From the UHGV virus genome UHGV-0164984: a DNA stretch of 35,681 nucleotides. One strand, given 5' to 3'. The position numbers and the translations under genes were made by a program. Positions 6,008 through 14,695 of this stretch are shown here, one piece after another. Each line of letters begins with the position of its first letter. Position 1 is the first letter of the stretch. The notes beneath the pieces are model-generated. The model was not told the origin of the DNA and ran no database searches. It saw only the letters and a program-made list of their open reading frames with translations. This DNA comes from a virus.

Positions 6008-6682
6008 TTAGGCTTTGATTTTGTATCTTCTTGGTTTTCCTGAGAAAATCACTGTACCAATTATAGAGCAATTACCGTTGATCTTAATGTAAGGCTCAGG
6101 CCAGTTTGGGTTTAACGCTTTGAGATAACGCTGTGTCCCATCTTCTATCAACCTTTTGAAGGTGGTTTCACCTGTATCGTGCATCAATGCAATAACGTCG
6201 TCACCGTGGCAGGCAGGTACTTCAGGATCGACAAAAATCATGTCTCCCGGGCGGTACTCATCAATCATTGAATCACCTATCACCCGCAAGATATAAGTCA
6301 TTTCCCCACAGGGTACAGGGCAGGGATACGTTTCTGCTGTGCTCAAATCAACCTCAGAATATCCAACTTCTTTCCATGCTCCGGCCTGTACCCATGATAT
6401 GACAGGGACTAATGTGATTTGTTTATTAGTGATTGAAACATCAGGTTTTTTTGTGATGTTCGTTGTCTGGTGTTCTTGATCGAGCCATCCGACAGGCAGG
6501 TCGAAACATTTTTCGATGTGTCGTGCCATGCTGTCACCGATATTTTTAGTAGCACCATCTCCCATAAACCTGCTGGTCTGGGTTGGCTCGCGATCAATCA
6601 TAGTGGCAAAGGAAGAATTCCCGCCAACACCATCTCTCAGTTTTCTGGCGTTAGACCGCCGGATGTCATGGATTGTTTTCAT
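6008..6682 (-). CDS. CI-type phage repressor (HTH + S24 LexA-like peptidase domain)
   Basis: 224 aa; C-terminal GDSM serine motif and downstream Lys (TFKRL) typical of S24 autoproteolytic repressors; divergent from cro with operators between. Confidence 0.9.
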   Translation of the reverse strand: MKTIHDIRRSNARKLRDGVGGNSSFATMIDREPTQTSRFMGDGATKNIGDSMARHIEKCFDLPVGWLDQEHQTTNITKKPDVSITNKQITLVPVISWVQAGAWKEVGYSEVDLSTAETYPCPVPCGEMTYILRVIGDSMIDEYRPGDMIFVDPEVPACHGDDVIALMHDTGETTFKRLIEDGTQRYLKALNPNWPEPYIKINGNCSIIGTVIFSGKPRRYKIKA

Positions 6683-6688
6683 AACGAA

Positions 6689-6768
6689 ATTAAAACCCTT
6701 GTACCGTTAAGGTACAAGTATCTTGAAGGTTCATTTCAATCATGTAATATGTACACCAGAGGTACATA
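6689..6768. promoter_or_regulatory. Divergent pRM/pR region with palindromic operators
   Basis: Perfect palindrome CTTGTACC-GTTAA-GGTACAAG at 6698-6718; second site ATGTAC-N7-GTACAT at 6749-6767; pR-like TTGAAG (6723-6728) 16 nt TAATAT (6745-6750). Confidence 0.55.
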
Positions 6769-6772
6769 TTGT

Positions 6773-6973
6773 ATGAAAGCGTATTGGGACTCTTTAACCA
6801 AAGAACAGCAGGGCGAGTTGGCCGGAAAAGTTGGCTCAACACCTGGCTACTTACGGCTGGTTTTCAATGGCTATAAAAAAGCCAGTTTTGTGCTGGCTAA
6901 AAAACTTGAGCAATGCACGTCAGGTGCAATTACGAAATCTGACTTAAGACCGGATATCTATCCGAAAGATTAG
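6773..6973 (+). CDS. Cro-like HTH regulator
   Basis: 66 aa ORF divergent from cI immediately downstream of operator region; HTH-like GKVGSTPGYLRLVFNGYKK. Confidence 0.75.
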   Translation: MKAYWDSLTKEQQGELAGKVGSTPGYLRLVFNGYKKASFVLAKKLEQCTSGAITKSDLRPDIYPKD

Positions 6974-7004
6974 CAGAACACTTTCAATTTTTAACCACAG
7001 AACG

Positions 7005-7574
7005 ATGAGGCTAATCGTGGGTAAGCATCACTGGAAAATAGAAAAACAGCCTGAGTGGTACGTGAAAGCTGTCAGAAAAACTATCGCGGCGTTGCCGGGT
7101 GGTTACGCTGAAGCGGCTGACTGGCTCGATGTAACAGAAAACGCTTTATTCAACCGCCTTCGTGCAGATGGCGATCAGATTTTCCCGCTGGGATGGGCAA
7201 TGGTTTTACAGCGTGCTGGTGGCACTCACTTCATTGCTGATGCTGTGGCGCAGTCTGCAAATGGCGTCTTTGTGTCTCTTCCTGACGTCGAGGATGTGGA
7301 CAACGCCGATATTAACCAGCGTCTGCTGGAAGTCATTGAACAGATCGGCAGTTATTCAAAACAGATTCGTTCAGCAATCGAAGACGGTGTAGTGGAACCG
7401 CATGAGAAGACAGCAATTAACGACGAGCTGTATCTCTCAATTTCGAAGCTGCAGGAGCATGCAGCACTTGTCTACAAAATTTTTTGCATTTCAGAAAGTA
7501 ATGACGCCCGCGAGTGTGCAGCTCCGGGCGTCGTGGCGTCGATTGCTTCTGGTTGTGGAGAAACTAACGCATGA
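7005..7574 (+). CDS. CII-like phage regulatory protein (e14 YmfL-like, 189 aa)
   Basis: Position after cro; size and [19 protein letters not shown] segment resemble CII/CP76-type regulators as I recall them; alternative GTG start at 7017 with GAGG SD. Confidence 0.55.
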
Positions 7575-7909
7575 ACAGTTTAACAACACACTACCGTCGC
7601 TCGCAACTGATTGCGCTTCCTGTACCGGGTGGAAAAGCGAAGGTGGAATATTGCTATGCAGTGAATGTACCAGGTGACAGGGAAATTGTAACCCACAGCT
7701 TTGCAGAGTGGGCTGTGGGTGATTTCAACCGGCAGAAGGAGACAGTCCTTTGCGACAAGTTAACCGCTGGTTCAAAGATCACTACGGAGTGCCCGTCAGA
7801 GTCATTCGTTGGGAGCCGGAAACACAACGGGTTATCTACCTCCGCGAAGGTTATGAGCATGAATGCTTCAGTCCGCTCGAACAGTTTCGTCGTAAATTCA
7901 GGGAAATAG
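7571..7909 (+). CDS. Hypothetical protein (e14 YmfM-like size, 112 aa); C-terminal third of doubtful coding quality
   Basis: ORF in operon position; N-terminal two-thirds protein-like, C-terminal part low-complexity; an alternative-frame ORF overlaps (see findings). Confidence 0.45.
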
Positions 7910-7918
7910 AGGTCGGTC

Positions 7919-8860
7919 ATGAGCACTAAATTAACCGGCTATGTATGGGATGGTTGCGCTGCATCAGGCATGAAGTTATCCAGCGTGGCAATTATGGCCC
8001 GCCTGGCTGATTTCAGTAATGACGAAGGTGTGTGCTGGCCATCAATTGAAACCATTGCCCGTCAGATTGGCGCGGGGATGAGTACCGTCAGAACGGCTAT
8101 CGCACGGCTGGAAGCAGAAGGCTGGTTAACGCGTAAGGCGCGTCGCCAGGGTAACCGCAATGCGTCGAATGTTTATCAGCTTAACGTTGCGAAGCTTCAG
8201 GCAGCGGCATTTTCTCAACTGTCAGATTCTGACCCGTCAAAATCTGACGCATCAAAATCTGACCCGTCAAAATTTGATGCGTCGAAATCTGGCAAAAAAG
8301 CGGGTTTTCACCCGTCAGAATCTGGCGGGGATCCGTCAGTAAAATCAAAACATGATCCGTCAGATAAAAAACCTTCTCGTCCGGACGCTTCGCAACCGGA
8401 CACGCAGACGGCTGAACAGGATTTTTTAACTCGCCATCCTGATGCGGTTGTATTCAGCCCTAAAAAGCGCCAGTGGGGAACGCAGGATGATTTGACCTGC
8501 GCACAGTGGCTCTGGAAAAAAATCATCGCCCTGTACGAGCAGGCCGCCGAATGTGACGGCGAGGTGGTTCGTCCCAAAGAACCTAACTGGACAGCCTGGG
8601 CAAACGAAATTCGCCTGATGTGTGTGCAGGATGGTCGTACTCACAAACAAATCTGCGAGATGTACAGCCGCGTCAGCCGCGATCCGTTCTGGTGCCGTAA
8701 CGTGCTCAGCCCGTCGAAGTTGCGGGAAAAATGGGATGAGCTTTCCCTGCGCTTATCGCCGTCCGTCAGCACGCACACAGAAAAACGTGAAGACCCGTAC
8801 TTCAAAGCCAGTTACGACAACGTGGACTACAGCCAGATCCCGGCAGGATTCAGGGGGTGA
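7919..8860 (+). CDS. Replication initiator (O-like, N-terminal HTH; internal iteron-encoded linker)
   Basis: 313 aa; N-terminal winged-helix-like region (…WPSIETIARQIGAGMSTVRTAIARLEAEGWL…); tandem DNA repeats inside the gene; position after cII-like gene. Confidence 0.75.
   Translation: MSTKLTGYVWDGCAASGMKLSSVAIMARLADFSNDEGVCWPSIETIARQIGAGMSTVRTAIARLEAEGWLTRKARRQGNRNASNVYQLNVAKLQAAAFSQLSDSDPSKSDASKSDPSKFDASKSGKKAGFHPSESGGDPSVKSKHDPSDKKPSRPDASQPDTQTAEQDFLTRHPDAVVFSPKKRQWGTQDDLTCAQWLWKKIIALYEQAAECDGEVVRPKEPNWTAWANEIRLMCVQDGRTHKQICEMYSRVSRDPFWCRNVLSPSKLREKWDELSLRLSPSVSTHTEKREDPYFKASYDNVDYSQIPAGFRG
8231..8373 (+). repeat. Iteron-like direct repeats (putative replication origin) inside replication initiator gene
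   Basis: About 15-bp units GACCCGTCAAAATCT / GACGCATCAAAATCT / GACCCGTCAAAATTT / GATGCGTCGAAATCT (8231-8290), further CCGTCAG-containing copies to about 8373, followed by A-rich stretch. Confidence 0.6.
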
Positions 8861-8862
8861 TC

Positions 8863-9351
8863 ATGAGTCTGTTAAATGACGTTCAGAAATTCATTGAAGC
8901 CCATCCGGGGTGTACTTCCGGAGACATTGCGGATGCTTTTGCTGGTTACTCACGGCAGCGCGTTCTGCAGTCAGCAAGCAAGTTACGTCAGAGTGGGCGT
9001 GTGGCTCACCGTTGTGAAGGAGATACACGCAGACATTTCCCGCGCCTGACTGAGAGAGCGCAGGAACCGGAACCACAACCAGTTCGTGAAACCAGACCTG
9101 TGCGCAATTTCTATGTCGGCACTAACGACCCGCGGGTGATTTTGTGCCTGGCCCGCCAGGCGGAAGAACTGGAGTCCAGGGGCTTATTTCGTCGTGCTGC
9201 AACCGTGTGGATGGCGGCATTCCGTGAAAGCCACTCCCAGCCAGAACGAAACAATTTTCTGGCGCGTCGTGAGCGGTGCTTACGGAAAAGCAGCAAGCGC
9301 GCTGCATCGGGTGAAGAGTGGTATCTGTCAGGGAATTACGTGGGGGCTTAA
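8863..9351 (+). CDS. Putative transcriptional regulator with PerC-like C-terminal region
   Basis: ATG at 8863 with GGGGG SD; C-terminal LARQAEELESRGLFRRAATVWMAAFRESHSQPERNNFLARRERCLRK resembles the PerC/Pch family as I recall it. Confidence 0.5.
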   Translation: MSLLNDVQKFIEAHPGCTSGDIADAFAGYSRQRVLQSASKLRQSGRVAHRCEGDTRRHFPRLTERAQEPEPQPVRETRPVRNFYVGTNDPRVILCLARQAEELESRGLFRRAATVWMAAFRESHSQPERNNFLARRERCLRKSSKRAASGEEWYLSGNYVGA

Positions 9352-9677
9352 TGACGACGTTAACTCAATGCCAGCAGCAGGTGCTGGATATGCTGATTTC
9401 TTATCAGAAAGAACGTGGCTTCCCACCAACCAATCAGGAGGTGGCAACCATGCTGGGATACCGTTCGGTGAATGCAGCGGTGGAGCATCTTCGTGCTCTG
9501 GAGAAAAAAGGCGTCATCACGATAAAGCGTGGCGTGGCCCGGGGGATAACGCTTCATACCGCGGTGAAGGACGACGACAGCGAGGCGGTCGGGATTATCC
9601 GCTCACTGCTTGCCGGTGAGGAAAACGCCAGGCTGCGTGCAGCCCACTGGTTACATGAGAGGGGCCTGAAAGTATGA
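9351..9677 (+). CDS. LexA N-terminal DNA-binding-domain-like protein (no peptidase domain)
   Basis: LTQCQQQVLDMLISYQKERGFPPTNQEVATMLGYRSVNAAVEHLRALEKKGVI parallels the LexA winged-helix domain; TAATG stop-start overlap with upstream gene. Confidence 0.6.
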   Translation: MTTLTQCQQQVLDMLISYQKERGFPPTNQEVATMLGYRSVNAAVEHLRALEKKGVITIKRGVARGITLHTAVKDDDSEAVGIIRSLLAGEENARLRAAHWLHERGLKV

Positions 9678-11877: not shown

Positions 11878-11894
11878 TTTTGTGGAGAAGGTTG

Positions 11895-12242
11895 ATGCGT
11901 GATATGTATGAAGTATTGGAGCGCTGGGGAGCATGGGCTACAGCAGATAATAGTGGCGTGGACTGGCAGCCGATAGCAGCAGGCTTCAAGGGGCTTTTAC
12001 CTCATGGCAAAAAGTCCCGGATTCAGTGTGATGATGATGAGGGGCTCATGATCGATGGGTGCGTAGCTAGATTAAGAAAGTACAAACCAGAAGAGTATGA
12101 ACTTATCGTTGCCCATTTTGTTATAGGAGTATCAATACGTACCATTGCAAAGAAAAGGAAATGTTCAGATGGGACTGTCAGAAAAGAATTGCAAGCCGCA
12201 ATTGGATTTGTGGAAGGCGTATTTAGTATTTTAAATATGTAA
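11895..12242 (+). CDS. Late-gene antitermination protein Q
   Basis: LERWGAWA...VDW...GFKGLLPHGKKSRIQCDDDEGL...IAKKRKCSDGTVRKELQ resembles Q-antiterminator family; precedes lysis region. Confidence 0.7.
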   Translation: MRDMYEVLERWGAWATADNSGVDWQPIAAGFKGLLPHGKKSRIQCDDDEGLMIDGCVARLRKYKPEEYELIVAHFVIGVSIRTIAKKRKCSDGTVRKELQAAIGFVEGVFSILNM

Positions 12243-12257
12243 GGGGCGGTGCCCCTT
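12230..12257 (-). terminator. Weak hairpin terminator between Q and the convergent MBL gene
   Basis: Stem AAGGGGC / GCCCCTT (12241-12257) with a U-rich stretch on the minus-strand side. Confidence 0.35.
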
Positions 12258-13347
12258 ATAAGCAAACAGCAGCGTAATGTGTTTCAACCTTAGGACTAGA
12301 CGTTAAGCAATTACTAACAGCAACTATTCCAAATTTATTGTTATTATTTGAAAATGAAACTGAACTTTTCATCTTCGCTAATATGCTCCGTGCTTCAGCA
12401 ATCGCAGGTGATTTTTCTTGAGCGTTATCACTTTTAGGCATCGATGTACAGTATAATGCTGATGATTTTGATTTGTAGAGGTCGATCATATCCTGCCGTG
12501 GTAGTGATGATTTATCATAAGTGGTTAAAATCGAAATAGGGTCTTTTTTGATTAGCTTGTTCCATGTTTCCTCATGAAAGCCTGTTTGGGAACCGTGGTG
12601 TGGAAGTTTGAAAATACCTGCTAAGTTTGGTTCTGGACGATTTATTGCATTGCAAACGGAATTCCATCCAGTGTTTTTACTAACTTCTAAATCTGCGCCT
12701 AATAATACTTCATTATTTTCTGATGTTGGAGAGCATATTCTGATTACAACGCAGTAGTGATTAGGATTAACTAATTTAGCAGACATGGCTATTTCGCTAA
12801 AATTTGATGATAATTTTGTAGAGTTTGCGAATTCAAGATCAGAGTTTGTTATATCCATATCAGAAGGCGATAACGAATGTACTTGAATATTCTCGCTGCT
12901 TTTGAATAGTATGCAGTCTTTTTTTGCATGGACAAGACGATCATTTTTGTGCAAATCATAGAATAAAGACATGACCTTGTTTATTTCTTTAGTTTTTGCC
13001 ATATCCTCACCATTAACACTTAGTGCATTAATATATCCTCTAAATTCAGATGTGTTCAATGCTGCGCTAATTACAACTTTTGCATTTTTGCAACTATTAA
13101 TAATTTCGGCTATCCCTTTAATATGATCATCGTGAAAATGACTAATGACTATCAGTTTTACTTCATCTTGTGGATTAACACCTTTTTCTTTCAGATAATC
13201 TAATGCTGCGGGGCGTTTATTATCATTTAAACAGGAATCAATAATCATCCATTCATTTAACCCAAGACGAACGACAATTGATTCGCCAATACCTTTACCA
13301 AAAACAATTGTTTCACAGATAGAGTTTTGAACAGTAGGCACCTGCAT
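12256..13347 (-). CDS. Metallo-beta-lactamase-fold hydrolase (distal gene of AT-rich cassette)
   Basis: 363 aa; HxHxDH motif SHFHDDH encoded at 13123-13143; additional His (KLPHHGSQ); AT-rich. Confidence 0.8.
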   Translation of the reverse strand: MQVPTVQNSICETIVFGKGIGESIVVRLGLNEWMIIDSCLNDNKRPAALDYLKEKGVNPQDEVKLIVISHFHDDHIKGIAEIINSCKNAKVVISAALNTSEFRGYINALSVNGEDMAKTKEINKVMSLFYDLHKNDRLVHAKKDCILFKSSENIQVHSLSPSDMDITNSDLEFANSTKLSSNFSEIAMSAKLVNPNHYCVVIRICSPTSENNEVLLGADLEVSKNTGWNSVCNAINRPEPNLAGIFKLPHHGSQTGFHEETWNKLIKKDPISILTTYDKSSLPRQDMIDLYKSKSSALYCTSMPKSDNAQEKSPAIAEARSILAKMKSSVSFSNNNNKFGIVAVSNCLTSSPKVETHYAAVCL

Positions 13348-13370
13348 TCACCGTATTGCGTAATTTCTAA

Positions 13371-13943
13371 TTATTGTTTAAAAATTCTTCTTAGGCGAAA
13401 TTCGGATACTCTTTTTTCTTGTCCAAATAAAGTTTTTTCCATACCAACATACCAATAAAAAATAGCGTTTTCGACAAGTTTTTGTTGATCGCTTTTACTA
13501 AATTCATCTGAAGAGAACGTTATCTCATCAATGAATTCATGAGAGTTTATATCATATACTCTAGCATGTATTTCTTTATTTGATTTCATATTGACAATTT
13601 TGTCAATTATACCATAAGTATCTAATGCCTTTTCAAGAAAGGTTATTTTTTCTTTAAGTCTTGCCTTGAGTTTTTTATGCTGAGTTCTATTTTTCACTCC
13701 TTTTTGTGTAGATGGGAATGGTTGCGGAGTAGGTATTTCAATTATATTTGTTGAATATTTTGAGCTGCAAGTTTCTTGCTGCTGTTCAAATGTTTCAGAA
13801 TAATTTTCAAAACCTGTCTTAATTATACAGGAAAGAGTTATGTTGTGGGTCTTTACAAATGTTTCAATGTTTTTTTCTTTTTTTGTTACGCAACGTGTAT
13901 TACTAAGGCTGGAAGAATTTTCAGGATAGGTTAATATATTCAT
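13371..13943 (-). CDS. Hypothetical protein (middle gene of AT-rich cassette)
   Basis: 190 aa ORF; start overlaps the upstream gene stop (ATGA at 13940-13943), implying translational coupling. Confidence 0.65.
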   Translation of the reverse strand: MNILTYPENSSSLSNTRCVTKKEKNIETFVKTHNITLSCIIKTGFENYSETFEQQQETCSSKYSTNIIEIPTPQPFPSTQKGVKNRTQHKKLKARLKEKITFLEKALDTYGIIDKIVNMKSNKEIHARVYDINSHEFIDEITFSSDEFSKSDQQKLVENAIFYWYVGMEKTLFGQEKRVSEFRLRRIFKQ

Positions 13944-14695
13944 GATAGAATCCGCTTAAACATTTGTTCATGGCTGAGGATATCATTCTTAATTGCTGCG
14001 GAAATATGTTTTTGAATTATATTTGGGAGTAATTGAGTGAATGCAACAGCGTCACGAATATCTTTCAAAGCTAGATCGTGATTGTATTGAACGTTTAAAC
14101 CAAATACATCTGGACTAACTTTTCTATACGAAGCATAAGAGACATTGATAGCCTCTTTGTAAATTGATTTATCTTCCTTGTTAGAGTTTTCTATTGCAAT
14201 GACTAAATTTCTCATCCCATAATGATATTCAACTTCATCCTGAAGTATTTCTGATTTATTGTGTTCTTGCCAATAAATTTTGGGGACTAATGCATCTCCT
14301 AACTGATTCCAGTTGGTTTCATTATTAAAATGATAATCAAAAAGGGTGTTTATTCCAACAGCTTGTGTCTCAGAATGAGGAAACATAGAAAATATTGATG
14401 ACACTAAGTCTGCCAAGGAATTTTCAAGCCCTGTTTTTTTCAGTTGAAATACTACTTTTGTTGGTATGCACGTAATCTCAATCCAACCGTAATCTGTTGT
14501 TATTGAATCACCATCAAAAGTTGTGTTTGAATTTGCTATATCTTCCTCTCTTAGCAAATCGTATCTTCTAAACCATTCAGATGAAAACATCAATGGAGTA
14601 ATGATGTTAGAGATCCATACAACATTAATCGTATGCTTAATAAGTTTGAAAGTCATAAATTGTTCTTGGCCCTCAGAATGAAAACCTAAGTGCAT
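13940..14695 (-). CDS. Hypothetical protein (first gene of AT-rich cassette)
   Basis: 251 aa ORF; alternative ATG at 14656 preceded by GAGGG; no recognisable motif. Confidence 0.65.
   Translation of the reverse strand: MHLGFHSEGQEQFMTFKLIKHTINVVWISNIITPLMFSSEWFRRYDLLREEDIANSNTTFDGDSITTDYGWIEITCIPTKVVFQLKKTGLENSLADLVSSIFSMFPHSETQAVGINTLFDYHFNNETNWNQLGDALVPKIYWQEHNKSEILQDEVEYHYGMRNLVIAIENSNKEDKSIYKEAINVSYASYRKVSPDVFGLNVQYNHDLALKDIRDAVAFTQLLPNIIQKHISAAIKNDILSHEQMFKRILS

Follow-up and report, generated by a model that had tools for sequence, protein, structure and literature searches.

In the virus genome UHGV-0164984, a stretch of 35,681 nucleotides (nt) that is called the window here, the replication initiator gene of a prophage (7919..8860, + strand; an open reading frame, ORF, of 313 amino acids, aa) contains a run of short direct repeats in its middle. 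This raises the question of whether the repeats are there for the peptide that they encode or for the DNA itself and, in the latter case, what the DNA does. The original prediction took them for an iteron array and for the replication origin of the prophage. We consider it very likely, from comparisons with homologous loci, that the segment of about 8213-8400 is the replication origin, laid out on the lambda plan with an unrelated DNA-binding domain.

The repeats were first delimited in the window. Tandem Repeats Finder reports 8228-8291, with a period of 15 base pairs (bp), 4.3 copies and 81% matches; an alternative reading has a period of 30 and 2.1 copies. In the codon register, the tandem array of putative iterons occupies 8219..8293 and consists of five 15-bp units placed head-to-tail, namely unit 1 (CTGTCAGATTCTGAC, 8219-8233, a perfect 13-bp palindrome), unit 2 (CCGTCAAAATCTGAC, 8234-8248), unit 3 (GCATCAAAATCTGAC, 8249-8263), unit 4 (CCGTCAAAATTTGAT, 8264-8278) and the degenerate unit 5 (GCGTCGAAATCTGGC, 8279-8293). 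An isolated but full unit 6 (CCGTCAGAATCTGGC) lies at 8312..8326, its start being in most genera a constant 33 nt from that of unit 5, and its core CAGAATCTG is a perfect 9-bp palindrome. Further right come two CCGTCAG half-sites (8333-8339 and 8357-8363), both immediately preceded by GATC. The tandem units of roughly 15 bp in the original prediction are therefore real, as both Tandem Repeats Finder and the motif search find them, but there are five of them and an isolated sixth rather than four. The array had been placed at 8231-8373; repeats do lie there, but they start about 12 nt further left, and the constraint on the DNA described below continues to about 8400.

The units share the family consensus NNN-TCA-A/G-A-A/T-TCTGAC, and each is partly dyad-symmetric (TCA-N5-TGA). 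With at most three mismatches, the consensus 15-mer gives eight matches, all within 8219-8328, against 0.91 expected in the whole 35.7-kb window, and none of 100 shuffled windows reached eight. These matches represent six sites, two of which are also found on the minus strand by dyad symmetry. The units stand at gene nt 301-408, so that at least three direct repeats lie in the linker-coding middle of the initiator gene, and they are translated within the 313-aa ORF as xS(K/D)S(D/G) pentapeptides of the low-complexity S/D/K/P linker that had been predicted. Two further CCGTCAG copies at 8059 and 8085, in the part coding for the helix-turn-helix (HTH), were not counted as sites because they are unconserved at synonymous sites in relatives. 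In the window as a whole, the CCGTCAG heptamer occurs about five times more often than expected (21 copies vs 4.1; a count of 21 is reached in 0/100 shuffles). Of these copies, 14 are found beyond the replication region, chiefly in structural genes and on the minus strand (e.g. 17438, 18852, 20404, 23394, 25336 ... 33660), and this excess may reflect codon-pair bias (CTG-ACG-G) rather than binding sites.

Whether selection acts on the peptide or on the DNA was addressed with 80 loci carrying the N-terminal domain (N-domain), collected from one-genome-per-species contigs. About 67 of them were usable homologues, from more than 25 enterobacterial genera including Escherichia, Citrobacter, Kosakonia, Yersinia, Proteus, Providencia, Rahnella, Erwinia and Pantoea, with N-domain identities of 69-100%. 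In nearly all loci with an N-domain identity of at least 72%, a 13-nt core occurs 2-6 times at the same gene position. Within the units, the first codon is free (A/P/T/L/G/V/R) and the following 12 nt keep particular codons, and the entropy profile consists of a 3-nt variable spacer and a 12-nt constrained block with no 3-periodicity. Codon use was counted in 134 units of 59 loci, which were picked solely by their peptide (S[KE]SD), and the remainder of each gene served as control; this count replaced a first one, in which the picking of units by DNA match had introduced a bias. Within the units, TCA accounts for 98% of the codons of the first serine (16% elsewhere in the same genes), TCT for 89% of those of the second serine (8% elsewhere), AAA for 100% of the lysine codons (62% elsewhere) and GAC for 79% of the aspartate codons (47% elsewhere).

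A column-wise comparison within one alignment, which controls for shared ancestry, leads to the same picture. Among loci sharing the amino acid at a column, the fraction of the major codon is about 0.9-1.0 for aa ~99-161 and 0.3-0.7 for aa 2-97. Over 2211 locus pairs, the synonymous-codon identity is 0.42 in the N-domain vs 0.845 in the linker, while the amino-acid identity is 0.80 vs 0.60, and the synonymous identity of the linker is above that of the N-domain in 100% of the pairs. Based on the codon fractions and the pairwise statistics, the constraint at synonymous sites extends over 8213..8400, which we take as the full extent of the putative cis-acting origin region. A second clade (clade B), made up of KH16-043-like loci from viral contigs with an N-domain identity to the window of about 62-64%, gives similar values: synonymous identity is 0.46 in the N-domain vs 0.87 in the linker, and amino-acid identity is 0.88 vs 0.57. 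In 51 of its 53 distinct loci the motif persists in two reading frames, as S-D/K-S-E in the array and as R/L-Q-N-L-T in the distal copy.

The spacing within the element is also conserved. An alignment of 12 genera has no indels between unit 6 and the second GATC, a stretch of approximately 80 bp, although the right flank and the unit count do vary. The copy number differs by +45 nt (+3 units) in E. coli ESY002 and H159 and by +15 nt in H160, and between genera it ranges from two units to nine, the latter in Providencia. Hence the two expectations under which the array had been proposed, namely that the repeats are conserved in relatives with the same initiator and that their copy number varies among those relatives, are both borne out. 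Taken together, these comparisons show strong purifying selection on the nucleotide sequence of about 8213-8400 and mark it as a cis-acting DNA element.

The protein encoded around this element consists of two domains and a linker. The N-domain (aa ~1-98) is a winged helix of the Pfam family HTH_36 (PF13730, aa 23-70, E=4e-11), with further GntR, MarR and DnaD_N-like matches; those to DnaD_N and to replisome-organiser phrogs are weak, and a sequence search of the PDB yielded weak MarR-type matches only. The repeat region encodes the unstructured, S/D/K/P-rich linker (aa ~99-170). The C-terminal domain (C-domain, aa ~172-304) is homologous to that of lambda O, which in lambda interacts with P, in BLASTP (E=8e-26), with clear similarity between aa 183-277 of the window protein and aa 187-270 of lambda O; no Pfam model exists for a C-terminal domain of this type. 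In contrast, BLASTP revealed no similarity between the N-domains of the two proteins, and Phage_rep_O (PF04492), which matches lambda O at E=6e-36, has no match in the window initiator, where HTH_36 is found instead. As a whole, the initiator matches phrog_391, 'replication initiation O-like' (E=9e-136), and no homology to the Rep_3 or RepA families was found. An AlphaFold2 (AF2) model of low confidence (predicted local distance difference test, pLDDT, 51), used for the coarse domain layout only, places helices at aa 4-99 and 189-279 and nothing structured at aa 100-188.

The repeats appear to follow the N-domain rather than the rest of the gene. Citrobacter phage phiNP keeps the N-domain and the repeats and has a different, Phg_2220_C-type C-domain. 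Conversely, mEp460 shares the C-domain of the window from SRPDASQPD onward, but carries another N-domain and another repeat with a 23-bp period. Approximately 890 E. coli records match the window only from 8330 rightwards. In one of these records, an ST131 prophage allele, a diverged homologous N-domain with the recognition helix STVKSAI is accompanied, at the same gene position, by five units of 15-bp period with GTTGAC-CC-GTCAAC in place of TCTGAC-CC-GTCAAA. In the loci with the helix STVITAI (Trabulsiella, L165-167), the units are always TTCA..TGAA, a change which probably represents a single evolutionary event. A simple covariation from outer G..C to outer T..A between the clades was also considered and does not hold cleanly, as clade B is mixed; only the STVITAI and STVKSAI alleles change consistently. 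The covariation of recognition helix and unit is thus suggestive rather than statistical. Distant homologues (34-41% identity; Psychrobacter, Thorsellia, Thermomonas, Phlomobacter) have tandem repeats of their own, with 12-23-bp periods, at gene nt ~280-440, and the 'O' of Stx phage 24B has a 24-bp repeat at the corresponding mid-gene position. These swaps, alleles and distant repeats indicate that a winged helix followed by its cognate linker repeats is a general layout, parallel to that of lambda, and the comparison of alleles argues that the cis-acting element is one that travels and co-varies with the N-terminal winged-helix domain of the initiator.

Several other observations concern the alleles of the initiator. 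They combine freely with partner genes: an IstB/DnaC-like AAA+ gene follows the initiator in the ST131 sister allele, an adenine methyltransferase gene lies directly downstream in ESY002, phiNP and mEp460, and neither is present in the window or SfIV. The methyltransferase partners and the two invariant GATC sites hint at a link to methylation. In the CPS-53 remnant of K-12 (yfdO), a 5'-truncated copy of the initiator, of which the counterpart in the window (8152-8860) is 99% identical, lies beside yfdN; its array and C-domain are intact and gene nt 1-233, coding for the winged helix, are missing, so that the K-12 array is an orphan without its cognate binding domain. Meanwhile, many database proteins of ~138-140 aa consist of the first ~79 residues of the N-domain fused to other phage sequences (e.g. 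RusA), which suggests recurrent deletions in decaying prophages with breakpoints at or before the repeat region.

To the right of the tandem array, two further segments can be distinguished. The spacer (8294..8311) contains an A6 tract and a small palindrome, CGGGTTTTCACCCG, that runs into unit 6. Its TTTT(C/G)ACCC part is kept across genera without indels in the family consensus and the 12-genus alignment, and the spacer scores as a weak terminator-like hairpin on the minus strand. The candidate DNA-unwinding segment (8330..8371) holds GATC at 8330-8333 and 8354-8357, each followed by a half-site, with the A/T-rich runs TAAAATCAAAACAT and ATAAAAAA alongside and after these pairs. It is near-invariant over the 12 genera, both GATC sites included, and is common to alleles with different iterons; the ST131-type allele is 88% identical from 8330 rightwards. 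The least stable 40-mer of the initiator gene, 8338-8378, is found directly right of the repeats (68% AT, dG -48.3, 93rd percentile of the window), and AT skew is further evidence for the segment. The A-rich stretch that had been noted after the repeats is accordingly present, but modest.

The reading of this region as a replication origin is well supported, if indirectly: the initiator is O-like, both by phrog_391 and by its lambda-O C-domain; the repeats lie mid-gene as in lambda; the region is conserved at the DNA level, in two reading frames and with constant spacing; the element is linked to the DNA-binding module of the initiator; the gene is least stable right beside the repeats; and lambdoid phages offer a documented precedent. 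On this reading, the HTH_36 domain would bind as a dimer to the 15-bp units with their partial dyad symmetry, to the five tandem ones as well as the isolated one, and the bound units together with the half-sites would form an O-some-like nucleoprotein complex. This complex would destabilise the adjoining A/T-rich, GATC-containing segment 8330-8371. The lambda-O-like C-terminal domain would then recruit the helicase, presumably as the host DnaB-DnaC complex, given that no homologue of P, DnaC or DnaB is encoded by the phage. Activation is probably aided, as in lambda, by early transcription that crosses the gene rightward. In such a scheme the protein linker would tolerate any peptide dictated by the DNA element, which would explain the odd xSKSD repeats and the in-frame gain and loss of units.

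However, several points weigh against this reading. It rests wholly on comparative sequence analysis, and the structure model, with a pLDDT of 51, is too poor to support protein-DNA contacts. No P, DnaC or DnaB family match was found in the early region of the window, and with no helicase loader encoded the recruitment step is conjecture. The candidate unwinding tract is weak (68% AT, dG -48.3) compared with that of lambda (78% AT, -44.4) and is broken by the GC-containing half-sites. A spacing of 15 bp puts neighbouring sites on different helical faces, unlike the ~20-24 bp of lambda. In addition, the outer positions of the clade B units are a mixture of G/T and A/C although the helix STVRTAI is kept, and the helix-unit covariation rests on few independent events. 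Circular 'plasmid' records with the module (CP081716, CP085522) were considered as evidence of autonomous replication and set aside, since they are indel-ridden, phage-sized assemblies that carry no replicon information.

Among the alternatives, the one that survives best is that the array is a set of binding sites for the same winged-helix protein or for a host factor with a role other than initiation, the true origin being elsewhere; autoregulation or a transcriptional roadblock, copy control by handcuffing, and replication exclusion or incompatibility can be proposed as such roles. In plasmids, iterons are known to serve in control and incompatibility as well. The comparative data tie the DNA element to the binding domain and not to initiation itself, the A/T-rich tract is weak, and K-12 keeps the array without the binding domain, all of which would fit such a role. 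However, the protein ends in a lambda-O-type C-terminal domain and matches replication-initiator families, and the motif has no further full copy in the window, be it at promoters or elsewhere. Moreover, mid-gene repeats followed by an A/T-rich segment are the arrangement of the lambda origin, and the distant homologues keep this layout. We therefore regard a non-initiation role as improbable.

Much less credible is the view that the repeats have no function as DNA and simply encode a low-complexity linker (xSKSD) that is prone to slippage. The array stays in frame, the linker that it encodes is S/D/K/P-rich and disordered, and the copy number shifts by multiples of 15 nt; low-complexity linkers are common. 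However, the amino acids of the linker are less conserved than those of the N-domain and its synonymous codons far more so. Specific rare codons are fixed across more than 25 genera, the motif is found in a second frame with a different peptide in the 51 clade B loci, and the spacing is strictly kept over ~80 bp. This explanation is very hard to uphold.

Just as remote is a synonymous constraint imposed by an overlapping gene in another frame or by a structured RNA (an mRNA hairpin or a small RNA) of the inverted repeats. ORFs of 55-60 aa in alternative frames are open in the window (8160-8342 +, 8181-8348 -), but four alternative frames carry stops in 65-67 of 67 loci, even the best frame is open in only 42/67, and the variability comes in a 3-nt block and is not 3-periodic; the RNA of 8205-8400 does fold at z=-4.8 vs shuffles, as expected from dyad repeats, and Rfam hairpin models give sub-threshold matches, but RNAalifold over 12 genera yields -9.9 kcal/mol with a covariation term of -0.06, long-range pairs would break on copy-number change, both half-sites are conserved as sequence and not merely in complementarity, and the best Rfam match, to a miRNA hairpin model, scores 30.7 bits vs a gathering score of 97.

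The replication origin thus remains the preferred reading, and it can be extended into a more specific proposal that we hold as a doubtful one. This proposal is a lambda-type initiation independent of P, in which the C-domain, carried on an HTH_36 iteron binder, would load host DnaB via host DnaC, sister alleles would use a phage DnaC-like protein, and firing would be gated by Dam and SeqA via the two invariant GATC sites. Roughly one in three complete E. coli genomes carries the initiator module, and in several relatives an adenine methyltransferase belongs to the same module.

The genetic context is that of a lambdoid prophage of E. coli of the SfII/SfIV/CPS-53 type. The initiator gene is 98-99% identical to genes annotated as 'replication protein / primosomal protein / replication protein O' in Shigella phages SfIV and SfII and in several E. 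coli phages, and at least 80% of it is found in 1576 of 5426 complete E. coli genomes. It lies in the rightward early operon, downstream of cI-cro-cII: a cI-like repressor (6008-6682, minus strand), cro, a CP76-type CII (7005-7574) and small ORFs precede the initiator, and PerC/YfdN-like, LexA-like, RusA, KilA-N, DUF968 and Q genes follow it. The loader or helicase gene of the two-gene O/P module of lambda is not found beside the initiator of the window. A promoter scan of 6600-9600 detected no sigma-70-like site. Directly upstream, an ORF of 112 aa (7571-7909; SfIVp40, phrog_1170) overlaps one of 59 aa (7750-7929; DUF4222 in RefSeq), which in turn overlaps the start of the initiator by 11 nt, and public records annotate these two overlapping ORFs differently. 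Further to the right, an insert of three minus-strand genes (12256-14695), counter to the flow, separates the antiterminator Q (11880-12242) from the genes for lysis. Their products are a protein of 363 aa with a metallo-beta-lactamase fold, one of 190 aa that has a Rep_Org_C match below threshold, and one of 251 aa without a family; this is the classic moron position, and the insert is a possible defence or accessory cassette.

For a prophage family that is very common in enterobacteria, these results provide a precise, testable candidate origin of ~190 bp together with candidate binding sites. SfII and SfIV, which convert the serotype of Shigella, belong to this family, as does the yfdO-bearing CPS-53 remnant of K-12. 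The results also offer a very clean example of a DNA element that overrides protein-level selection within a gene, which matters for dN/dS analyses, for recoding and synthetic-genome work, and for the annotation of 'low-complexity linkers'. The absence of a loader gene beside a lambda-O-type C-domain raises the question of what the domain's partner is when P is missing. The principle of an origin within the initiator gene is textbook knowledge; what is new here, very probably as far as the origin is concerned, is a phage group in which it was undescribed. The genome papers of SfIV and SfI describe a 'replication module' and mention no origin or iterons, and none of the classical phages with a mapped origin (phi80, 82, P22, HK97) is among the relatives of the DNA-binding domain that were found. 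The lambda paradigm would thereby be extended to another DNA-binding fold, and current understanding is not overturned.

Among known systems, the iteron origins of plasmids (pPS10, R6K, F, P1; RepA/pi-type) resemble the element of the window in having tandem repeats with a cognate winged-helix initiator, whose binding is predicted here, and an adjoining A/T-rich element, which is modest in the window. GATC sites occur in or near P1 oriR. However, plasmid iterons lie outside the rep gene, and Rep binds iterons as monomers and an inverted-repeat operator as dimers. A second group, the 'initiator-only' phage replication modules with DnaD/replisome-organiser-type initiators and internal origins, is reportedly a category of the 2006 review by Weigel and Seitz. 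The window has in common with these a single initiator gene, an N-terminal winged helix, internal repeats and a presumed reliance on host helicase loading, but its C-domain is lambda-O-like and not DnaD- or Phg_2220_C-like, the latter type being found in the phiNP sister allele.

The closest parallel is lambda itself. The lambdoid origin consists of iterons and an AT-rich tract in the middle of O, and in Stx phages the iterons number six instead of four, so that O is longer by 13 residues (PMC7466680). In the window, as in the 6-iteron variants of Stx phages 933W and P27, an in-frame change in repeat number alters the residues of the linker. The four iterons of lambda O are at gene nt 349-433, nearly the same gene position as the units of the window (nt 301-408), and both sets are partly dyad-symmetric direct repeats with A-tracts and an A/T-rich segment on the right, which in the window is modest. 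In both, the N-domain and the repeats are swapped as one module, apart from the C-domain; the C-terminal domains are homologous, and the gene is downstream of cI-cro-cII in the rightward early operon. Besides these likenesses, a site in the right arm of the lambda origin (39161-39183, CGTCAGAGAATTCTGGCGAATCC) resembles window 8313-8334, which spans unit 6 and the first GATC (CGTCAGAATCTGGCGGGGATCC); BLASTP does not align the two, and common descent is unproven. The differences are equally clear. The units of the window are 15 bp long and abutting, whereas lambda iterons are 18-19 bp long and spaced ~20-24 bp; the unit sequence is unrelated, with five tandem units, one isolated unit and two half-sites in the window against four iterons in lambda; the A/T tract is weaker (68% vs 78% AT) and includes two conserved GATC sites; and no P or other loader gene follows the initiator. 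Finally, the DNA-binding domain belongs to HTH_36 in the window and to Phage_rep_O in lambda O, and for this reason the element of the window, as judged from these comparisons, is an analogue, not a copy, of ori-lambda.

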